This document shows positions 4,582 to 33,689 of a DNA stretch of 33,689 nucleotides, in pieces. The translations under genes and the position numbers were made by a program. Location: the IMG/VR virus record IMGVR_UViG_3300035187_003302, positions 1 to 33,689 of that record. One strand, 5' to 3'. Numbering within the stretch: the stretch's first letter is position 1; the number at the start of each line of letters is the position of its first letter. Below the pieces are notes generated by a model. The model was not told where the DNA came from and did no database searches. It saw nothing but the letters and a program-made list of their open reading frames with translations. The stretch comes from a virus. Lineage: Duplodnaviria; Caudoviricetes.

Positions 4582-6225
4582 ATGCCGCTCGACCTCGCGA
4601 CCCCGGACGGCGTGCGCGCCGCCATCACCGAAATCGCCGCCAAGCTGGACACCACGTCCACGCAGACGGCCGACCTCGCCGCTTCCGTGCAGGCCGCCCT
4701 TGCCGGCGGCGCCGCCCCCGCGGCCAAGGCCGGCGGGCTGGACGCCTTCCGCAACGCCGACGGCTCGCTGTCCCTCGCCCCGGTGACCACCGACACCGAA
4801 ATCCGCGTCGGCGATATGCCCGCCCTCCTGCGGGTTTCCAAGCCCGGCCTTCTCGACAAGTCCGCCGCCGGCCTTCTCCCGGAGCCGGAGGCCAAGGCCG
4901 CCGCCGCCGCGCGGAAGCCGCTTGGCCGTCTGGCCGCCCTCGCCCGCGTCGGCTACCGCGGCGGGCTCGCCCCGCTCTCCCGCGAAATTGGCGAGGCTTC
5001 GGCCGCCGTCCGCAGCGCCCCGGCGTCCATCCGGCCGGCCTTGGAGTCCGCGCTTTCCGGCGTGCTCGCCAACATCGGCCACCGCGCCGCCGGCACCCTG
5101 GCTTCGTCCTCCGCGGCGACCTCCGGCGCGTGGCTTGACTGGGTTGCGGAGGACATCATGGCCGACGTGATGGACCTCACGGCGACCGCTTCGCAGGCCG
5201 GCCTTGGCCTCTCCATCCCCGTCATGGGCGGCAGCCTGCACGCCACCGAGAACCTTTCGGTTCGCCTCCTGACCGGCATCGGCGGCTTCCGGCAGCAGGG
5301 CCGGCAGACCTCGAACGTCTTCGGCCAATACGCCCTTACCGACTTGGCCGTTTCGAAGGCCAGCGTGACGGGCGCCCGCGGCGTGCATTCGTCCATCATC
5401 GACGCCGTGGACCTCATCGACCCGCGCGTGACCTGGGATGTTCTCGAAACGCACCAGCGCGCCGCCATCCTGGCCGAGCTTGCGACCCGCGACCTCCTGT
5501 TCTTGCACGGCGAGTCCGAGTCGGCCCCCGCGTCGCACGTCTACGGCGCCGCCGGTCTGGCCCTCATCGGCCAGTCCACCGCCACCACCACCGCCGCCAT
5601 CGACGTGGACGGGCGCGTTCTGGCTGAGTCCGGCGGCACCGATGATATGCTCCTGACCTGCGATGGTCTTGTCGGCATGGCTTCGGACCAGTCGAACGAC
5701 CTCGACGACGCCACCTTCGGCATGGCCTCCGAGACGGAATGGCTGGCCACGGTCGCCGGTTTCGTGAAGTTCCACAACTTGGCGATGGCCAAAATCCGGG
5801 AGCAGTACCACTACCTCCCCGGCACCGGCTACGTGCTGGACTTCCAGGCCGCCCGCGCGCTCATGGCGCTGAACACCCTCACCGCCGGCGGTCAGGTGTT
5901 CGTCACCCCGGTTTCGGACCCCGCGAATCCGTGGCTTGTCGGCCGCCTCTACGACGGGACGCCCATCTACCGGCACGCCTTCGTCGGCTCCGGCAGCTAC
6001 TCCACCGCCGGCATCCCGAACGCGACGGGCGGCAAGAACGCCGCGTTCCTGGCCGCGATGTCCGCCATCGTCCGCGTCCAGGGCCCCGGCCACGGTTCGA
6101 CGAAGGTGGAGAACATCCCCGGCACCGACGCTGTGCAGGTGAGCCGCATCTACCACGAGCGGTTCTTCAACCCGGTTCCGAGCGCCCGAAAGACCGCCCT
6201 CCGCGTCTACGGCCTCGACATCTGA
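4582..6225 (+). CDS. Major capsid protein (probably with N-terminal scaffold segment)
   Basis: Position after protease; own promoter and AGGAG SD; strongly biased codons; LLFLHGES and GRLYDGTPIY resemble HK97-fold motifs; hairpin after stop. Confidence 0.8.
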   Translation: MPLDLATPDGVRAAITEIAAKLDTTSTQTADLAASVQAALAGGAAPAAKAGGLDAFRNADGSLSLAPVTTDTEIRVGDMPALLRVSKPGLLDKSAAGLLPEPEAKAAAAARKPLGRLAALARVGYRGGLAPLSREIGEASAAVRSAPASIRPALESALSGVLANIGHRAAGTLASSSAATSGAWLDWVAEDIMADVMDLTATASQAGLGLSIPVMGGSLHATENLSVRLLTGIGGFRQQGRQTSNVFGQYALTDLAVSKASVTGARGVHSSIIDAVDLIDPRVTWDVLETHQRAAILAELATRDLLFLHGESESAPASHVYGAAGLALIGQSTATTTAAIDVDGRVLAESGGTDDMLLTCDGLVGMASDQSNDLDDATFGMASETEWLATVAGFVKFHNLAMAKIREQYHYLPGTGYVLDFQAARALMALNTLTAGGQVFVTPVSDPANPWLVGRLYDGTPIYRHAFVGSGSYSTAGIPNATGGKNAAFLAAMSAIVRVQGPGHGSTKVENIPGTDAVQVSRIYHERFFNPVPSARKTALRVYGLDI

Positions 6226-6991: not shown

Positions 6992-8076
6992 TGAGCGTTT
7001 GCATCCCGTCCATGCTGGCGATGGCCGGCGGCGCGTCCGGCGGCGGTGGTGGCGGCGGTGGTCCCGACCTCACCCCGCCTTCGACCCCCACGCCGCAGGT
7101 TTTGGCCTCCGGCACAACGGCGCTTGGCAGCACGTCCATCGGCTCTTGGTCTGATTCGGTGACCGTGACCGCGACCGTCACGCCCTCCGCGGGCGGCGCT
7201 GTGACCGCGACCGTCACCGGCTCGGGCGCGGGGCCCTATTCCGTCTCGATTGCCTCCGGGCTTTCGGACGGCCGGTCCTACGCCGTCCGTCTCCGGGGTA
7301 CCGGAGCCGACGGGCAGGTGGCCGACGTGGTGCTGTCGGTGGGGGTCGGCACGGCCGCCCCCGCGCCGGGCTGGGGCACGCTCGCAGAGTATGACCTTAC
7401 GGCCGTGGACACGGCTACGGCGGTCACGGCGACCGGCGGCGACGTGGCCCTTACCGTGGGCGGCGCGGCGTTCCTGACGCTCAAAACCATCTTCGGGAGC
7501 GGGACTGGCTCTTTGACGCCCACTAACGGCTCCGGCGTTATCTTCGCCGGGTCCGGGGGGGGCATCCGGTCGGCGTTCGTAAACATCGACTGGGCCACGC
7601 TGGGCGCGGACCTGGACACGGAAACGCTGGCAATCCTGATCGAATTTGGCTTCACGAGCATCATCTCAGGCGGCACCATCCTCGCCACTGCTGCGACGGT
7701 GAACGCCAACGTCAACGCAAACCACAACTTCGGCGGCCGGTGGTCGCTCAGCGGAACCACCTACGCAATCGCCCCAAGGTATTACAACTCCGCCGCTACC
7801 ATCGGAACGGCGGTATCGTCGGGAACCACGGCCTTTTCGGGCAACTACTCGGCGGCGATGGTTGTCGGCCCCGGTGGACAGACTGTGTATATGAACGCCG
7901 GTTCGCTCCCGACCGACCCCTCGGGCTTCGGCTTTGGGCCGCGCAGGTACTCGCAGCCCGTCAGTACGTGGACTTCGGGCAGCCTGACCTACCCGGCCGG
8001 GCCGCCCAAACCGGCGTTCTGGGTCGAAGATGCTGTCTGTGTCTGGCGCAAAATCCGCATCATGCGTTGGAGTTAG
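6988..8076 (+). CDS. Putative fibre / receptor-binding virion protein
   Basis: Poly-Gly linker, Thr/Ser/Gly-rich Ig-like middle, compositionally distinct lower-GC C-terminal beta domain. Confidence 0.55.
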   Translation: MMSVCIPSMLAMAGGASGGGGGGGGPDLTPPSTPTPQVLASGTTALGSTSIGSWSDSVTVTATVTPSAGGAVTATVTGSGAGPYSVSIASGLSDGRSYAVRLRGTGADGQVADVVLSVGVGTAAPAPGWGTLAEYDLTAVDTATAVTATGGDVALTVGGAAFLTLKTIFGSGTGSLTPTNGSGVIFAGSGGGIRSAFVNIDWATLGADLDTETLAILIEFGFTSIISGGTILATAATVNANVNANHNFGGRWSLSGTTYAIAPRYYNSAATIGTAVSSGTTAFSGNYSAAMVVGPGGQTVYMNAGSLPTDPSGFGFGPRRYSQPVSTWTSGSLTYPAGPPKPAFWVEDAVCVWRKIRIMRWS

Positions 8077-8079
8077 CCC

Positions 8080-8283
8080 ATGCTGGTCTTTGACGTGCAG
8101 CGCGGCATTTACGACGATGCGGGCATCGAGCATATCGAATTTAGGGCACGCCTAACGGCTGCGCAGGCCGACGCCCTTGTGGCGAGCTATGACCCGGCCT
8201 CCGCGACCTCCCCGCCCGCCGCGGACTGTCGCGCCGTCGCCCGGCCGATTGCGGAAGCCGTGGCCGCGCTGGACCGGCCGTGA
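8080..8283 (+). CDS. Hypothetical protein (possible fibre-associated)
   Basis: 67-aa ORF packed between neighbours. Confidence 0.6.
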   Translation: MLVFDVQRGIYDDAGIEHIEFRARLTAAQADALVASYDPASATSPPAADCRAVARPIAEAVAALDRP

Positions 8284-8474: not shown

Positions 8475-8890
8475 ACGGCCCCCGCTACCAATGGGGCGCG
8501 CGGTCGCTTGGCCGGCTTGCGACGTGCCATCCGGCCCTCCGCGCCCTCTTCGAGCGGGTGATTCTGCGGCCCGATTTGCCCTCGGATTTGACCGTGCTTT
8601 GCGGCTTCCGGGGAAAGCCGGAGCAGGATGCCGCCTTCGCCGCCGGCACGTCCCGCCTTCGGTGGCCCACGTCGAAGCACAACGCGCAGCCGTCGCGCGC
8701 GGTTGACGTGGCGCCCCTTGTCGGCGGCGCGGTCACTTGGGATTGGCCGGCGTACCACGCCTTTGCCCCGCTTGTGAAAGCCGAATGGGCCGCGATGCAG
8801 CGGGAGGGGTTGTTCCCTGGCTTGCGCCTCGTTTGGGGCGGCGATTGGGTGCGCTTCCCCGATGGCCCGCATTGGGAGATTGCGGAATGA
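8471..8890 (+). CDS. Endolysin, M15-family L-Ala-D-Glu peptidase
   Basis: CGFRGKPEQ, SKHN...AVDVAP, WGGDW...DGPHWE zinc-peptidase motifs. Confidence 0.9.
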   Translation: MNGPRYQWGARSLGRLATCHPALRALFERVILRPDLPSDLTVLCGFRGKPEQDAAFAAGTSRLRWPTSKHNAQPSRAVDVAPLVGGAVTWDWPAYHAFAPLVKAEWAAMQREGLFPGLRLVWGGDWVRFPDGPHWEIAE

Positions 8891-9237
8891 TGCTGCTATT
8901 CTTGGCCTTGGCCTTCGCGCAGGATGCCGCCGCGCCGCCCGTTGTCGGTGGCCCACCTCCGGGCTCGGACCCGTGGGGATACCTTGGCGCCGCCCTGGCT
9001 GCCGGCGTTGCCGCGTGGACCGCGGAACACGTCCGTAATCGCCGGGCCGCCGGTCCAGACGCAGACCTTTCTCCCCTTGCCGCGCGCGGTCCCGATGGCG
9101 CGGTCATTCTCCTACGCCGAATGGAGGCCATCGAAGATGCCGTCCATGATCTTGCGCTCTCCGTCGCCGCCCTCGCACGCGCCCACGCTGACGGCACCAC
9201 CTCCGCAGCCCATCCACGCAGGAGGCGCACCGATTGA
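8887..9237 (+). CDS. Membrane protein of lysis module (signal peptide, TM helix, coiled coil)
   Basis: MMLLFLALAFA|QD signal-like N-terminus, WGYLGAALAAGVAAW TM segment, helical C-terminus; ATGA overlap with endolysin. Confidence 0.6.
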   Translation: MMLLFLALAFAQDAAAPPVVGGPPPGSDPWGYLGAALAAGVAAWTAEHVRNRRAAGPDADLSPLAARGPDGAVILLRRMEAIEDAVHDLALSVAALARAHADGTTSAAHPRRRRTD

Positions 9238-9382
9238 CCCGGCGGTGCGCGTGGCGCGCGTGCGCTCCGCGGTCGCCGTGGCCGTTCTGGCGTGCGCTGA
9301 CGTAGTGCGCGACGTGCGAGGGGACGCAGAGGCCGACGCCCTTGTGGCTGCGGCGCATTCGACCTCCGCGCGCGGCGTCTGA
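9233..9382 (+). CDS. Possible 49-aa ORF with non-canonical ATT start
   Basis: AGGAGG at 9220-9225, 7 nt before ATT 9233, which overlaps the upstream TGA; fills the gap. Confidence 0.3.
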   Translation: MDPAVRVARVRSAVAVAVLACADVVRDVRGDAEADALVAAAHSTSARGV

Positions 9383-9383
9383 C

Positions 9384-9725
9384 GTGGAGCTTTTCGCCGT
9401 GGAGTCCGCGCTTGCTGTCGGCCGCCGTTGGCGCCTTGCATGGGGCTCGGCTGACTTAGGCCACCATTCGCACGCTGACCCGCTAACGGACCAAGAAGCC
9501 GCGGGCGTCGCGGACTTCGTGCGCGATATCGTGGGCTCCGGCGCGGGGTGGCAGGTGCGATGCACGCTCCCGACCGTCAAGGCGACCGCGGTTTCCGGCC
9601 TAAGCCAGACAGCGCCGCAGCTTGCCGCGCTTTTGTCCGCGTCGGCGCCGGCCGTCCAAGGCGGGCTTCTCCGGGCAATCTGCGCCGCCCCGGTGCCCGG
9701 CGCGGCCATCCCGGCGTTCCTCTAA
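9384..9725 (+). CDS. Hypothetical protein
   Basis: GTG 9384 just after the preceding stop; ORF in track 9342..9725; start uncertain. Confidence 0.5.
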   Translation: MELFAVESALAVGRRWRLAWGSADLGHHSHADPLTDQEAAGVADFVRDIVGSGAGWQVRCTLPTVKATAVSGLSQTAPQLAALLSASAPAVQGGLLRAICAAPVPGAAIPAFL

Positions 9726-9759
9726 GAGAAACCCCCGCCCGGACCATTCCGAGCGGGGG
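9724..9759 (-). terminator. Rho-independent terminator, minus strand
   Basis: CCCCCGCTCGGA-ATGG-TCCGGGCGGGGG then TTTCTCTT; the G-U pair works only on the minus strand. Confidence 0.65.
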
Positions 9760-9806
9760 CGGGTGCCATCCCTACGGACGACGCGCCTTAGATGTTCGCC
9801 GTCCGT
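9724..9806 (-). ncRNA. Candidate ~83-nt small RNA (5' hairpin plus intrinsic terminator)
   Basis: Minus-strand TTGACG-17-(TGC)TACGGC at 9841-9813; 10-bp stem starting at the predicted +1; 12-bp stem followed by UUUCUCUU. Confidence 0.55.
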
Positions 9807-9906
9807 GGGTAAGCCGTAGCACGGGGCCCCGCCCGCGTCAAAGCCGGACAAGCAACCCCGCGAAACACCTACGGGCGCCCGGCGCCGCGCCGTGGTAGGA
9901 TGCGCC

Positions 9907-10524
9907 ATGACCGTCCGCCTTGTCACCCTTGACACGTACCGCGCGCGATATCAGGGCTCCGGCCCCGTGGTCCCGCTTGACGATTCCGCCGTGCTGGCGC
10001 GGATTGACGCGCTGTCGGCGGCCATTCTTCACCACCTCGGCTTCCCCGCCGGGGGCGAGGATTGGGATTCGGCGTCGCGCGTCTGGACCTTCGGGCCCTA
10101 TGATTGGGCGTGGAATCCGTGGAGCGACGAATCCCGGCTTGTGCCGCAGTTCTCCCCGGTGGCGTCGGTGACCAGCATCGAGGAATCCGGCGACGGTTCG
10201 ACGTGGACAACCGTACAGGCCGATTACTACACCCTCCGCGACGGCTCGGACCCCGCCCGCGTGCGCATCGACGCCATCAAGGGCGCGCGCTGGTCGGCGG
10301 AATCGTGGTATCGAGTGACCTACGTTGCCGGCTGGACCACCGTTCCCGGCGCCGTGGAAGACGCGGCCGGGCGCCTGGTGGCTTTCTCCTTGGACGTGGA
10401 CCGGCGGCGCGGGCGGCAGGGGGAATCCGGGGTCGGGCAGCCCTCCGAGACGTACCGCCCGGAGACGTGGCCGGATGACCTCCGCGCGCAGCTTGCGCCG
10501 CACAAGCTCCCGTGGCGTCGCTGA
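9907..10524 (+). CDS. Head-tail connector / adaptor (gp6-like)
   Basis: PVASVTSI, YRVTYVAGW..VPGAVEDA motifs; TGGTAGGAT -10 shortly before ATG (leaderless). Confidence 0.8.
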   Translation: MTVRLVTLDTYRARYQGSGPVVPLDDSAVLARIDALSAAILHHLGFPAGGEDWDSASRVWTFGPYDWAWNPWSDESRLVPQFSPVASVTSIEESGDGSTWTTVQADYYTLRDGSDPARVRIDAIKGARWSAESWYRVTYVAGWTTVPGAVEDAAGRLVAFSLDVDRRRGRQGESGVGQPSETYRPETWPDDLRAQLAPHKLPWRR

Positions 10525-11093
10525 CGCTTGACGAATTGCCGGGGGCGCTCCTTGCCCTTGGCGAGCGGGCGCAAACCGCCCTCGGACAATACGCCGCGAA
10601 AGTCGCGCAGCGGATGGCGGCCGACGCGGCGACCTTCGCGCAAGCCAGGGTAGGCGGCTCGCTTGCCCGCTCCGTCGAACCCCTCGTAGAGTTTCACCCC
10701 GACGCCATCCGGGCGGGCTTCATCGCGGGGCGAACCGAGCCCGTCATCCGGTACGCCCGCGTCCAAGACGAGGGCAGCGGCTACCTTCCGGGCGGCGTCA
10801 TCCGTCCCCGCTTTATGGAATACCTGCGGATACCGGTGCCGGGCAGCCGCGCGCGGGAGCGGTTCCCGGGCGGGCCTCTCACGCTTTTACACGATTCCGA
10901 GGGGATGAAGTTCTTCCGCCTTCGCGCCCGTGACGGCTGGCTCATGGTCTATCGCGGTGAACCCTTGTGGATTCTTGTTCGCACCGTCCGCCTCCGCGCG
11001 ACGAATTACGGCCGGGACGCGCACGATGCCGAAGTGCGCCGCATCGACGGGGAAATCGCGGACGGCTTGCCAGGACTGCGCATTCCGGGGTAG
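10512..11093 (+). CDS. Neck / tail-completion protein (HK97 gp10-like)
   Basis: LARSV, YARVQDEG..G.IRPR...YLRIP motifs; basic; synteny. Confidence 0.65.
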   Translation: MASLTLDELPGALLALGERAQTALGQYAAKVAQRMAADAATFAQARVGGSLARSVEPLVEFHPDAIRAGFIAGRTEPVIRYARVQDEGSGYLPGGVIRPRFMEYLRIPVPGSRARERFPGGPLTLLHDSEGMKFFRLRARDGWLMVYRGEPLWILVRTVRLRATNYGRDAHDAEVRRIDGEIADGLPGLRIPG

Positions 11094-17996: not shown

Positions 17997-19624
17997 GTTG
18001 GAGCCCGGCCTTCGTCGCCGCCATCGAAGCGGGCGAGTCCATCCGCATCCGGCTTTCGTGGGCCGGCGCGACCGTCGCCACCTCGGACGGCTCCGGCGGG
18101 TGGGCCATGACGCGGATGCCGGTGGTGTCCGGGTGGGGATTGCAGCTTCGGACGTGGCAATGCTCGCTGCCGGTGATGTCCTTCGAGATTGCCGCCACGC
18201 CCGCCGAATACCAAGCCATCACGGGCCAAGTAGTGCTCGGCTCTGTCGTCTCCGTGTTCGCGGAATTCTCCGGCGGCACGGAACGCATTTGGCGCGGGCG
18301 CATCCTCGACTATTCGATGGGCGGCCTTGGCGACCAAACCAGGGTCCGAATCGACGTTTCGGATTTGGTCGCCTACACCCTCGACCGCATCCCCACCGGG
18401 AGCACCTACCCGGCGCCGCTCTTCGACGGCGTGGGCCGGAAGGCGCCGCAGCGGGTCCGACTTGGAATGGTCCCGTTTGACGACTTCACGCTAACGACGG
18501 TCAAGGCCGAATATACAACGCTCGCATCCGGCTTCACCCCTGGCGTTTCGACTGAGCTTGACGTGGGGAGCACCACGTCTTTCACACTCGGCTATGACTT
18601 CGCGAATTCGACGCCGATTGCGGCGGCGGTGCTGGCGAAGGCCAATGGGACGGAGGGCTTCGTCTATTTCGCGGCGAAGACCAGCACCAAACTGCAAACC
18701 CTGACCTATCCGCAGATGCCGGGCGGGACGCCGGCCAATCCGCCGTTCGCCACGTCCTACGCCATCGCTTCCGAGGTCTACCCCGTCGCCGTGGTTGCCG
18801 GGCATCCCTTCACGGTCATCCAGTCCGTCTGGACTTCGACCGGCGTATCCCTGGCGAACGGGCCCTATGACCGCCTCCCGGCCGCGTGGGCGCAAGGCAT
18901 CCCCTACGGGGAGATTGACGCCACCGATGCGAACCGATGGTCGGCGCTTGTCTACACCTCTTCGGTTGGCTCGGACCCGTGGACCGCGATTCAGACCCGC
19001 GTGGAATGGGAGTCCGGCGCGGACCTTTACACATGGGCCGCGCCCCTCGGAATCTGGCCCGTCACGCGCCAAGGCCAATTGACCTTGCGGGCGGCCATCG
19101 TTCCGGCTTCCGCTGGCGCGACCGTCATAGCCGGCGTTGTCAACGACTCCAACATCGTCGCGCTCGGGAGGCACAAAATCCGGGCCGCCGGTTGCGACGC
19201 CGAATATCGGGCGCTGCCTTTCTCGCACGCCACGTACCACGCCGTCGGCGCCGCCGGGAATCCGACGGAAGTGTACGTCTTAGGCCGGTCCAACCTCCGG
19301 CCGGTCACGCGCCCCGCGCAGTATTCGCCCGCGCCGCTGGACCTAAACCAGCACGTCATTGGCGAAACCGCGCCCATCGCGCAAGACCTTGACCGCCGCG
19401 TGGCGCCGTGGGCGTGCCGCGTGGCCTTCGAGGTCGAAGGCGTGGAGCTTTGGGGCGCCGCCGTCGGTTGGGTGCCGGGCGATATCGTGCGCGTCACGTC
19501 GGCCGCCATCCCCATCGGGGGCGGCGCGACCGCGCAGGATACCCCGGCGGTCTGGATTCCCGAAGAGGTCGATTGGGGAAGCCGGACGGCGCGGGGTCGG
19601 TTGGTCTTCCTACCCGCGCAATGA
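17993..19624 (+). CDS. Putative tail tip / baseplate hub protein
   Basis: IWRGRI, RIDVSD, GWVPGDIVRV motifs; 543 aa; last plus-strand tail gene. Confidence 0.6.
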   Translation: MSWSPAFVAAIEAGESIRIRLSWAGATVATSDGSGGWAMTRMPVVSGWGLQLRTWQCSLPVMSFEIAATPAEYQAITGQVVLGSVVSVFAEFSGGTERIWRGRILDYSMGGLGDQTRVRIDVSDLVAYTLDRIPTGSTYPAPLFDGVGRKAPQRVRLGMVPFDDFTLTTVKAEYTTLASGFTPGVSTELDVGSTTSFTLGYDFANSTPIAAAVLAKANGTEGFVYFAAKTSTKLQTLTYPQMPGGTPANPPFATSYAIASEVYPVAVVAGHPFTVIQSVWTSTGVSLANGPYDRLPAAWAQGIPYGEIDATDANRWSALVYTSSVGSDPWTAIQTRVEWESGADLYTWAAPLGIWPVTRQGQLTLRAAIVPASAGATVIAGVVNDSNIVALGRHKIRAAGCDAEYRALPFSHATYHAVGAAGNPTEVYVLGRSNLRPVTRPAQYSPAPLDLNQHVIGETAPIAQDLDRRVAPWACRVAFEVEGVELWGAAVGWVPGDIVRVTSAAIPIGGGATAQDTPAVWIPEEVDWGSRTARGRLVFLPAQ

Positions 19625-19680
19625 CCGCTATCCCGCGCAATGACCGGCTATCCCGCGCAATCGCAATGACCGGCTATCCC
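19613..19680. repeat. About three tandem copies of a 19-20 bp unit at a convergent gene junction
   Basis: CCCGCGCAATGACC(G)GCTAT at 19613-19631 and 19632-19651, then an interrupted copy at 19652-19677. Confidence 0.9.
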
Positions 19681-20027
19681 GGCTTGATTCCGGTGAACGC
19701 TTCGAGTTCCGCGACGGAAACCAGACAGCGGACCACGGCTTCCGCGTATCCGGCCAGACCCGGGAGGTCGGCGGCGGTGCAGTAGGCTACGAGGTCCACG
19801 GCCTCTTGCAGCGCGTCCACGGCATGATTTCGCCCGTTCGAGCGTTGGAGCGGCACGCCGTACCGCGCGATTCCCTGCGCCCGACGTTCCACGTACAACG
19901 CGCGCAACCGCGGGTCCGAGGTCCGCGCGATGATTTCGGCCCAAACGTCGCCATCGGCGGGCACGGGGTCGGGCTCGGGCGCAAGCCGGGCGGCAAGGGC
20001 CGCAAGCTGTTCCCGGTCGGTGCTCAT
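19674..20027 (-). CDS. MazG-like all-alpha nucleotide pyrophosphohydrolase
   Basis: ERRAQGIARYGVPL...NGR...DALQEAVDLVAY, an ExxD helix typical of phage MazG-like proteins. Confidence 0.55.
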   Translation of the reverse strand: MSTDREQLAALAARLAPEPDPVPADGDVWAEIIARTSDPRLRALYVERRAQGIARYGVPLQRSNGRNHAVDALQEAVDLVAYCTAADLPGLAGYAEAVVRCLVSVAELEAFTGIKPG

Positions 20028-27796: not shown

Positions 27797-27825
27797 AGGG
27801 TAGCGCGGCGCCCCGTAGCCGTCAA
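27797..27825 (-). promoter_or_regulatory. Promoter for C5 methylase (leaderless)
   Basis: TTGACG-17-TACCCT; ATG 27790 begins 7 nt after the -10. Confidence 0.75.
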
Positions 27826-30933: not shown

Positions 30934-32747
30934 CGCCCGCCGAAATCCTCCGGCTTCCGCTGGCCGACCTTGTGACGGCCGCCGCCGCGTCGGGCCCCGC
31001 CGGGCTGGCGTGGCTTCGGTTCCGCTGCGACCGCGACTTGGCCGCATACATGGCGCTTTGCTGGCCGGGGATTGCCGCCGCGCCCTTCGCCCCGTCGCAC
31101 CGTGCCATCTTGGCTTGGTTCGATTCTCTGCCGCCGTTCGACCTCCGCGCCGCGCAAGCCGGGGCCGATGCCGAGGCCGACCCCATCGCGCGGTCGGCGT
31201 GGGAGGCGCCGCGCGGGACCGGCAAAACCTCGGTTGCGATTGCTGCGCTTGACCGGGCGGTGCGTTCGGGCCGTGAACCTTACGTCGTCATCATCGGCCC
31301 GGAGTCCGCGCACGCATCCGCGCTTTCCGTCTCGCTCCAAGCGATGCTGAGCCCCGGCCACCCCGCCGCGTCGCCGATGCTGGCCGCGCTCTATGGCGAC
31401 GTGGGATGGACCGGCAACATGGGCGATGGCGCGGTCAAGCGTGGGGCCGTCCTTGGCTTCCCCGCGGGCGTCTCCTATGTCTCCGTCCGTTCGATTGGCG
31501 GCACCATCCGGGGCCTTCTTCGTGGGACGCACCGGCCAACGCTGGTTCTCCTTGACGACCTCGAAAAGCCAGACGACGTGGGCAGCATGGCCGCGCGCGA
31601 TGCGATGCACGAAAAGCTGAACTCGGACGTTCTAAACTTGGGGCCGCAGGGCGGCGGCTTGGCGGTCTGCCTCATGGCGACCCGGCTTCACCCCGACGCG
31701 GTGTCGGCGCGTCTCCAACGTGACCCGGCTTGGGATGGCGCGTCCTTCCGCGGGATTGTGCGTTGGCCCGTCGGCGTCGAATCGGGCGAAATCCAGGAGG
31801 GCAGCCGATGGGCGGAATGGCGGGCGCTCCTGACGGACCCGGCTTCACCCGCCCGGGAGCGCGAACGCGCCGCCCTCGACTTCTACCGGCAGCACCGCGA
31901 CGAAATGGACGCCGGGGCCGAAGTGCTCGACCCTCACCGGCTTCCGCTGTACCGGGCGATGCTCCGGCTTGTTTCGATTGGGCTCCCGAGCTTTCTGAAA
32001 GACGTACAGAACGCGCCGATTGCTTCGGGCGGCGGCGCATTCCGCCCCGATTCGTTCCGGTGGTGTACGCTGGACGGGCGGGATGTCGTCATTGGCTACG
32101 GAGACACCGCCCGGCGCATCCCCCTTCCGGCTTTCTCCCGCGCGGTGGTCCACCTCGACCCGACCACAAGCCGCAAGAAGGGCAGCACCGCCCGCGACTT
32201 CGCCGGCTTCGCCGTGGTGGCGATGCGAGACGACCGCGCGACGGGTGAACGGCTGTACGTGGTGCTCGAATGGTCGGCCGTCCGCGAAGAGCCCGAAGAC
32301 CAAGCCGAACGGGCGTGGGCCGCGTGGGCGCGGTGGCGGGCCGCCGGCATCCCCGCCGTGGAGGTCATCTACGAAAGCAACGGCGGCGGGGGCGCCTGTC
32401 TCCAAGGCGAATACCACGCCGATATGCGCCGCAAACGCAAAGCCGCCGGCCTCCCGTCCACGATGGAGCCCGTCGCCATCCACGAAACCCGGGCTAAGGA
32501 CGCCTGCATTTCCGGCGTGGTTCCGCTGCTGAATAACGGCGTGGCCGTGCTTTCGACCGCCATCCGCTCGCATGAGGGCGGCCGGGAAGCTCTCCGGCAG
32601 ACGGAGGCATGGCCCGGCGGCGCGCATGACGACGGCCCCGATGCGCTGGCGAAGGCGCTGCTTCGGTTGGAAAGCGCGTCTACGGGCGGGCTTTCGCTGG
32701 CCGATGCCGAGCGGGCGTTGTCGCTCTTCTCCCGCGCCGCCGGGTGA
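30930..32747 (+). CDS. terL: Terminase large subunit
   Basis: Walker A APRGTGKT, IRG, Walker B VLLDDLE, ATRLH.D, QN.P, nuclease HLDP and HDDGPDAL. Confidence 0.92.
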   Translation: MTPAEILRLPLADLVTAAAASGPAGLAWLRFRCDRDLAAYMALCWPGIAAAPFAPSHRAILAWFDSLPPFDLRAAQAGADAEADPIARSAWEAPRGTGKTSVAIAALDRAVRSGREPYVVIIGPESAHASALSVSLQAMLSPGHPAASPMLAALYGDVGWTGNMGDGAVKRGAVLGFPAGVSYVSVRSIGGTIRGLLRGTHRPTLVLLDDLEKPDDVGSMAARDAMHEKLNSDVLNLGPQGGGLAVCLMATRLHPDAVSARLQRDPAWDGASFRGIVRWPVGVESGEIQEGSRWAEWRALLTDPASPARERERAALDFYRQHRDEMDAGAEVLDPHRLPLYRAMLRLVSIGLPSFLKDVQNAPIASGGGAFRPDSFRWCTLDGRDVVIGYGDTARRIPLPAFSRAVVHLDPTTSRKKGSTARDFAGFAVVAMRDDRATGERLYVVLEWSAVREEPEDQAERAWAAWARWRAAGIPAVEVIYESNGGGGACLQGEYHADMRRKRKAAGLPSTMEPVAIHETRAKDACISGVVPLLNNGVAVLSTAIRSHEGGREALRQTEAWPGGAHDDGPDALAKALLRLESASTGGLSLADAERALSLFSRAAG

Positions 32748-32790
32748 CTTGTCAAGCGTATGTCAACCGCTTGACGGGCGCGGGGTGCGA
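32664..32790 (+). repeat. Terminal overlap copy 2 (identical to 1-127)
   Basis: Exact match with offset 32663. Confidence 0.95.
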
Positions 32791-32799
32791 GCATATGAT
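32749..32799 (+). promoter_or_regulatory. Early promoter, allele B
   Basis: TTGACG (32771-32776)-17-TATGAT (32794-32799). Confidence 0.8.
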
Positions 32800-32848
32800 G
32801 TTTGTGTCCGGGGGCGATGGAGCCGCCCGGCGAACAGGAGAAGCCACC

Positions 32849-33105: not shown

Positions 33106-33510
33106 ATGACCGCCACCATCACCGACGCCTACTATCTCCGCTGCGACGCTTCCAACGTGCCCGATAACGTCAGGTTTGACGTTCCCCGCCGCTTCCAGGG
33201 GCATATTGTCGAGTATGCGTTCGCTGACGCGACCCCGGGCCGCGGGGAGGGCGACGTGGGGTCAGTCTGGAAGATGGCCACCGACCGCTCGGACCAGTCC
33301 GTTTGGTTCGCACAGCGCCACATCGAGCTTCGGACGGCGCGCGCGGTTCGCACCTTCGGCGATGGCTCGAACTGCCGCCGCTTCCGCGTGGCCCTCGGGA
33401 CGGGCACCGTCCAAGCGTGGGACGTGGTGGCCGACCATTGGACCACCTGCCACAGCCTGACGGCCCGTCAGATTGCCGCCCTGCGGGCCGCCGCTCGGGA
33501 TGCCGCATGA
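33106..33510 (+). CDS. Early hypothetical protein (cassette allele B, gene 2, 134 aa)
   Basis: AACAGGAGCAAGCCATG start box; stop overlaps the yqaJ ATG. Confidence 0.7.
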   Translation: MTATITDAYYLRCDASNVPDNVRFDVPRRFQGHIVEYAFADATPGRGEGDVGSVWKMATDRSDQSVWFAQRHIELRTARAVRTFGDGSNCRRFRVALGTGTVQAWDVVADHWTTCHSLTARQIAALRAAARDAA

Positions 33511-33689
33511 GCCTTCGCATCTACCAGACCCGCGCCGAATGGATGGCCGACCGCCGCAGCGGCGCCCCCGCCTTCGAGGTGGGCGCATCGGACGCGGCGG
33601 GCTTGGTTGGCCTCTCCCCGTGGGCGTCCCCGTGGGATTCGTGGACCTCCGGCGCCGTCGGTGGGGGCAACCCGCCGGCAGAGGCCGAC
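33507..33689 (+). CDS. Second allele of the YqaJ-like exonuclease 5' end (truncated by window)
   Basis: Matches 365-547 except clustered changes at 33543-33545 (A to M) and 33602-33606 (LL to LV). Confidence 0.9.
   Translation, partial: MSLRIYQTRAEWMADRRSGAPAFEVGASDAAGLVGLSPWASPWDSWTSGAVGGGNPPAEAD

Follow-up and report, generated by a model that had tools for sequence, protein, structure and literature searches.

A conserved and probably transcribed small-RNA unit beside a gene-exchange slot in an uncultured phage species

Most known phage small RNAs come from a few enteric and Pseudomonas phages, and for many, 38 of them listed in one survey, no function has been assigned; the examples in the survey include RNAs that act by base pairing (PMC12197685). 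As described, lambda OOP, P22 sar, PAK_P4as15 (PMC12197685), and STnc6030 of phage BTP1 (PMC7067206) lie opposite late genes by the lysis cassette and overlap a coding sequence or a translation start. Racrs, or solitary repeat units, are presented as small, non-coding, intergenic units placed directly behind a promoter and are defined by their likeness to CRISPR repeats (PMC10651486, which used a set of 17,823 repeats). Furthermore, variable accessory regions are reported often to carry host-interaction genes (10.1101/2023.04.06.535777). Here, we examined a putative small-RNA unit in an uncultured phage. Like the antisense RNAs named above, it lies opposite late genes by a lysis cassette, but it shares only 2 nt of a stop codon with coding sequence, and STnc6030 is about ten times as long. 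Like the solitary repeat units, it is small, non-coding, intergenic, and directly behind a promoter-like site, whereas no CRISPR-repeat likeness was seen against Rfam.

The analysed stretch (hereafter, the window) comprises an entire virus record, 33,689 bases long and with 70% G+C. Its genes include RecE/RecT-like genes and those for a portal, head protease, endolysin, primase/helicase, DNA methyltransferases, large terminase, and tail tube protein; a scan of 61 ORFs turned up no integrase. A plus-strand 547-aa gene in the capsid position (4582–6225) has three homolog clusters (97, 63, and 59%) and no PHROG or Pfam match; judged by its position, it encodes a divergent major capsid protein. 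At 7355–8167, the 3′ part of a 362-aa Gly/Ser/Thr-rich gene is replaced in three related records (G010, G011, and L137), and the replaced part is likely an exchangeable receptor-binding or decoration domain. The ends of the window repeat mutually (1–150 with 32664–32813 at 97%, and 362–547 with 33504–33689 at 96%), with differing small genes, each behind the same promoter, between the repeats; this represents either the assembly of a circular genome out of two strains or another swap slot, located ahead of the RecE-like gene. At the promoter-like sites at 27825 (minus strand) and 28283 (plus strand), the predicted +1 is the ATG itself, and leaderless mRNAs are thus predicted for a methyltransferase and a small gene. 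Short imperfect tandem repeats occupy 19620–19690, the junction between the tail arm on the plus strand and the early arm on the minus strand, and this junction varies among strains.

The unit lies on the minus strand in the lysis–neck interval, between a 113-aa orphan gene and a head-tail connector-like gene that are both encoded on the plus strand (Table 1). The first-pass annotation had placed it in the largest gap of the structural arm, which agrees with our measurement of 181 nt, the next largest of the 13 gaps from the portal to position 11093 being 59 nt. The orphan gene has a third-position bias of 0.25 as against 0.04–0.07, and one homolog cluster (96% identical). The connector-like gene has no Pfam or PHROG match, and the −10 of its promoter-like site is TAGGAT or TAGAAT, varying by strain.

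Table 1. Coordinates of the small-RNA unit, its neighbors, and the genes and units in the adjacent slot (window positions unless a record is named)
Feature	Position	Strand	Remarks
−35 box TTGACG, host sigma70-type promoter-like	9841–9836	−	Invariant in 7/7 aligned rows
Extended −10, TG-C-TACGGC	9821–9813	−	TG 9821–9820; TACGGC 9818–9813; final T missing; invariant
Spacer between −35 and −10	17 nt	−	From sequence
Predicted +1 (A9806)	9806	−	First base of stem 1
Hairpin 1	9806–9774	−	10-bp stem, 9806–9797 with 9783–9774; AU-rich loop of 13–14 nt
Linker, 14 nt	9773–9760	−	Invariant, weakly structured (3-bp hairpin at most); candidate pairing/binding segment
Terminator-like hairpin and tail	9724–9760	−	Stem 9759–9749 with 9742–9732; U-rich tail 9731–9724
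113-aa orphan gene	9384–9725	+	Converges on the RNA unit; stop codon overlaps the U-rich tail by 2 nt
Head-tail connector-like gene	9907–10524	+	Labelled from position and weak matches to distant phage proteins
Connector promoter-like site, extended −10 without −35	9893–9901	+	Divergent from the RNA unit
93-aa slot gene, 3′ remnant	9838–9863	−	About 277 bp missing in the window
PAPS-reductase/SspD-like slot gene, 297 aa	L008: 3017–3910; also in L006	−	Own promoter-like site
Second ORF-free promoter-hairpin-terminator unit	L003: 1320–1432	+	Divergent from the studied unit; fold z −2.5

All of the parts claimed for the unit in the first-pass annotation, namely the promoter, 5′ hairpin, linker, terminator, and tail, were found in place. 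The terminator was said to have a 12-bp stem; its hairpin and tail are present, but the stem has 11 bp when counted strictly and 12–13 when flanking G-U and A-U pairs are included. Its style is the same as that of the hairpin after the capsid gene at +6236. A generic scan found the terminator (one of three terminator-like sites, with 2.0 expected) and returned no promoter in the unit, because it demands the final T of the −10. When folded, the 83 nt of the minus strand reached −48.7 kcal/mol (z −4.41), a value that none of 200 shuffles equalled, and formed hairpin 1, a weak 3-bp linker hairpin, and the terminator hairpin; the same 83 nt of the plus strand reached −39.3 kcal/mol (z −3.45, one of 200 shuffles as good), with the stems broken. 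Stem 1 can be extended by three pairs (9809–9807 with 9772–9770); alternatively, the G's of this extension close a weak 3-bp hairpin with 9763–9761. The G-U pairs had been described as specific to the minus strand, and their plus-strand equivalents are indeed A-C mismatches; in all three alleles, the minus strand folds better than the plus strand, by 9–9.5 kcal/mol. As for coding capacity, no ORF is contained in the unit, as had been noted, but an AUG at 9769 opens a frame of 15 codons that ends past the U tail. This frame is shifted in L005 and has lost its stop in L003, L136, and L137, and a small-peptide product was rejected because the frame is not conserved among strains. On the plus strand, a six-codon frame (9792–9812), with its ATG in the copy of loop 1 and its stop before the −10, is found in all strains and is probably a by-product of the conserved RNA.

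Sites of the form TTGAC-17-TA are a recurring set before gene starts in the window. A promoter matrix was built from eight other phage sites, with the candidate left out. Because the training sites were picked by eye from a list of TTG..-17-TA matches, a choice that favors such a site, the score of the candidate is to be read with this in mind: 17.4 bits, within the leave-one-out range of 11.0–23.0, at rank nine of 67,320 and first of the non-training positions. Its extended −10 is of the same type as that of the site at +28283. The missing final T of the −10 had been named as a weakness; this is real but softened, since the promoter-like site of the SspD-like slot gene in L008 is of the same type, also lacks this T, and scores 14.2 bits. 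Both boxes are invariant among strains, whereas two sites in the spacer vary, and L003 keeps the −35 although the DNA directly upstream is wholly different. A 5′ hairpin also opens four of the nine other promoter-like sites, at −16.8 to −19.8 kcal/mol compared with −17.0 kcal/mol for hairpin 1.

Relatives of the phage were collected by searches with the connector and the left gene, and share 91–97% nucleotide identity over most blocks; further strains stand behind protein clusters of 47 and 79 members. The unit was present in all seven other records that span the site (L002, L003, L004, L005, L008, L136, and L137); L006 and L007 end before it and stand outside this count. Because L002 equals the window over 19.6 kb and L136 and L137 are identical over the element, these records yield six distinct rows and four stem-1 haplotypes. 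Among them, stem 1 varies at five of its 20 sites, about the neutral rate, and every variable site is still paired: two pairs show a double change and one a single change (pair 4 is G-C, G-U, or A-U; pair 5 is A-U, G-U, or G-C; pair 8 is G-U or G-C). Over the six distinct rows, 144 of 144 cells were paired, as compared with 36–56% in slid-partner controls. The double changes pass through G-U states that pair on the minus strand only. When five random substitutions were simulated as independent events (200,000 trials), all kept their pairs at a frequency of 0.002 stepwise and 0.007 in the end state. With regard to the covariation among relatives that the first-pass annotation had proposed to look for, pairs are kept at all five variable sites, in a small sample of four stem-1 haplotypes from one species, where 63 of 500 column shuffles reach the same double-change count. 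The center of loop 1 occurs as two alleles, distinguished by one transition and by an indel of 1 nt, between flanks that do not vary. The linker and terminator together vary at one of 45 sites, compared with 0.19–0.25 at third codon positions (binomial 1e−4), a deficit that is marginal against the all-site rate of about 0.10 (p 0.05). Terminators are generally conserved.

Directly upstream of the −35 lies a slot with four different contexts, in each of which the RNA unit is whole. In L004, L005, L136, and L137, the slot holds a minus-strand gene for 93 aa that belongs to no known family and has its stop codon inside the −35 box. This gene is deleted in the window and L002, and runs X1 and X2 likewise have contigs with the short allele; they are among four wastewater runs that were examined as contigs and are probably DNA. 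The 297-aa gene of L008 and L006 matched PAPS_reduct in Pfam (E 3e−22) and SspD in PADLOC (E 1e−26), and is possibly a DNA-modification or counter-defence gene. The replacement in L003 reaches precisely to the −35, and the second unit found there has a 16-nt promoter spacer, a short hairpin that opens at the predicted +1, and a terminator-like hairpin of 12 bp; its linker has a C-rich word in common with the studied unit, and the loop of its terminator is similar to the 3′ end that the 93-aa slot gene has in other strains. This second unit was seen in L003 only, being absent from the related records, and had no Rfam match at threshold. By their sequences, the slot neighbors look like accessory genes. 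In five of the seven records, a minus-strand gene ends 0–20 nt before the −35, and the terminator of the RNA unit likely also ends the slot genes of these other strains. In one more distant record (L138, connector 62% identical), the endolysin is joined directly to the connector and the whole 8890–9906 block is absent, suggesting that the block is an addition of the studied lineage; 3.4 kb of 10 kb was examined in a further distant contig (L139), and the 62% clade may hold the unit elsewhere.

Searches beyond these strains returned no homolog of the unit. The Infernal/Rfam search suggested at the outset matched no family: against Rfam 15, the window had no match at the gathering threshold, the best sub-threshold match being P15 (15 bits versus 70, E about 1). 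Only matches of E 8 were obtained by blastn against 50,697 phage records, and none of the five records with distant connectors matched the unit. Patterns for the loop alleles hit at least 119 loci each in viral contigs (18/64 and 33/64 parts), and the fold extended in none outside the species; the linker pattern hit 18 loci, five in the studied species and 13 unrelated, and the pattern scan of genome contigs hit five loci, all without the fold. With covariance model R1, searched against 28 and then 98 sources, full matches were confined to the studied phage species, 39 loci (L247–L285) being screened by script only. Patterns, blastn, and the covariance model revealed no paralog in the window, and there was no prophage relative or copy in genome contigs. 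Regarding the host, bins with homologs are labelled Acidobacteria and Verrucomicrobia, labels that conflict and may reflect mis-binning; terminase matches in cultured phages are at about 27%, and Atlas searches for a host taxon returned none. Word searches, which are weak for an unnamed element, found no published description of the unit.

The functions first suggested for the RNA, a protein decoy, an RNA anti-CRISPR or antitoxin mimic, or a trans regulator, were not confirmed in any case: no Rfam CRISPR-repeat family or other Rfam family matched, and target prediction for loop 1 in five phage records gave no target above shuffled loops (best −15.4 kcal/mol, in the window, versus −10.8 to −18.1 for 15 shuffled loops). 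A type I antitoxin layout was rejected, as the converging gene is the 113-aa orphan and the coding overlap is 2 nt. A kissing-hairpin switch was likewise rejected, as loop 1 and the terminator top form six pairs in one allele only and the terminator is invariant; the match between loop 1 and the linker comprises five and six pairs in the two alleles (shuffle p 0.11 and 0.036). The word YUNR is present in the plus-strand loop of both alleles, but was not accepted as a signal because 72–73% of shuffled loops have it. A sponge for CsrA was discarded: of the CsrA-type GGA words, one is conserved (in the linker), and that in stem 1 is lost in L004, L005, L008, L136, and L137. Mimicry of an anticodon loop was dropped because the two loop alleles fit the consensus inconsistently, and a 9-mer that the unit shares with early-gene leaders was attributed to chance (0.24).

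The original proposal of a self-contained minus-strand small-RNA gene is upheld at the level of sequence by the promoter rank, by the retention of the unit in 7/7 records and four contexts, and by pairing changes that work on the minus strand only. On these grounds, we consider it likely that the minus strand gives rise to an RNA whose fold is under selection, and the locus is probably a selected, transcribed small-RNA unit of an undescribed family, so far confined to a single species of uncultured phage. Bacterial small RNAs act most commonly by base pairing. As to function, we tentatively propose an independent accessory RNA of about 80 nt that may be trans-acting, with its invariant linker pairing to a host mRNA. 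Host RNA polymerase would transcribe the unit from its own promoter, from 9806 to about 9727, and because the recombination and replication genes have promoters of the same class, production of the RNA would begin early in infection. The two ends of the RNA would be shielded by hairpin 1 and by the terminator, respectively; 5′-end protection is a likely role for hairpin 1, given that it resembles other leader hairpins and that its letters drift while its pairs hold. The pairing segment would be the nearly unstructured linker, perhaps together with the invariant loop flanks, as this stretch between two strong hairpins appears to be the best candidate for an active single-stranded segment. The target is placed in the host because no phage target stands out. 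Counting against this reading, the −35 contains the stop codon of the 93-aa gene in four of the seven records and could be partly fixed by that gene; also, should the loop be the active part, the variation at its center would be awkward for a seed.

The same RNA might instead be a decoy or ligand for a host protein that binds RNA in defence or regulation; stem 1 would then be the scaffold on which the loop is presented. Stem letters that drift almost neutrally with pairing kept, beside invariant loop flanks, form the shape-first pattern that such a role predicts; the adjacent slot in L006 and L008 has a gene like defence-system DNA-modification enzymes, and phage RNA decoys such as the Racrs are on record (PMC10651486). 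Nevertheless, with no CRISPR-repeat or other Rfam match, a single conserved GGA of the CsrA type that sits in the linker, and an inconsistent likeness to the anticodon-loop consensus across the two loop alleles, we regard this role as unlikely. Much less likely still is an anti-defence decoy of a new structural class, for which the slot would exchange small RNAs and counter-defence proteins as equivalents (the studied RNA, the second unit of L003, and the SspD-like enzyme); the two loop alleles would then match variants of a host RNA-sensing or RNA-cutting protein. We are also doubtful that the RNA is a cis-antisense regulator of the late transcript for the phage's head and lysis genes, pairing with its 3′ end and trimming or dampening it as lambda OOP does cII. 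A generic scan detected no plus-strand terminator-like site in 8500–11000, so the late transcript would cross the unit and be fully complementary to it. Free change of loop letters is expected where an RNA and its target share the same DNA, as in type I systems (PMC6562991), the YUNR word is kept in both alleles, and RNAs against lysis or structural genes are described, such as PAK_P4as15 (PMC12197685) and STnc6030 (PMC7067206). However, the coding overlap of 2 nt covers no translation start, the connector has its own promoter-like site downstream, YUNR is as frequent in shuffled loops as noted above, the plus-strand copy does not keep the stem, and the converging gene, at 113 aa, is not a small toxin-like peptide.

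Another account dispenses with a separate RNA: hairpin 2 would end the swappable genes, hairpin 1 would either belong to their 3′ UTR or be what is left of a leader, and the match to a promoter would be incidental. The slot genes that end so close to the −35 in five of the seven records need a terminator, the final T is missing from the −10, leaders in this phage commonly have 5′ hairpins, and an AUG follows hairpin 1. Nonetheless, the unit is intact where there is no upstream gene (the window, L002, and L003), L003 keeps the −35 to the base beside replaced DNA, and both boxes are invariant while the spacer is not. Furthermore, compensating changes occur among strains that share one hairpin-terminator junction, which argues that selection on hairpin 1 continues, and we therefore find this account rather improbable. 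A DNA-level element, such as a cruciform, an origin, or a recombination signal, could mark the edge of the exchange slot, as the unit borders a replacement hot spot in a phage with RecE/RecT-like genes; with changes that pass through G-T states paired on one strand only and a layout that is that of a transcription unit, this is extremely unlikely.

The natural compensatory variants and the two loop alleles make the unit a ready-made object for structure-function work, and it indicates, within a reach limited to one phage species, that what looks like an empty, ORF-free gap of an uncultured phage can be a gene under selection next to a swap slot. Like phage morons as described (PMC3594210), the unit has been added within the structural arm and has promoter-like and terminator-like sites of its own, as judged from sequence, and is absent at the same place in one relative (L138); unlike them, it has no protein product and no compositional mark, its G+C being 0.67 compared with 0.70 for the genome. 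The trans-acting RNAs PreS, VpdS, and DicF, as they appear in the survey (PMC12197685), resemble it in layout only, being short and ORF-free with an intrinsic-terminator-like end and an accessory position; they differ in that the unit has no sequence or Rfam likeness to them, has a short U tail, and comes from a host that is apparently not enteric. In its intergenic position, the unit also resembles the unassigned phage small RNAs reported from long-read sequencing (PMC9163698).
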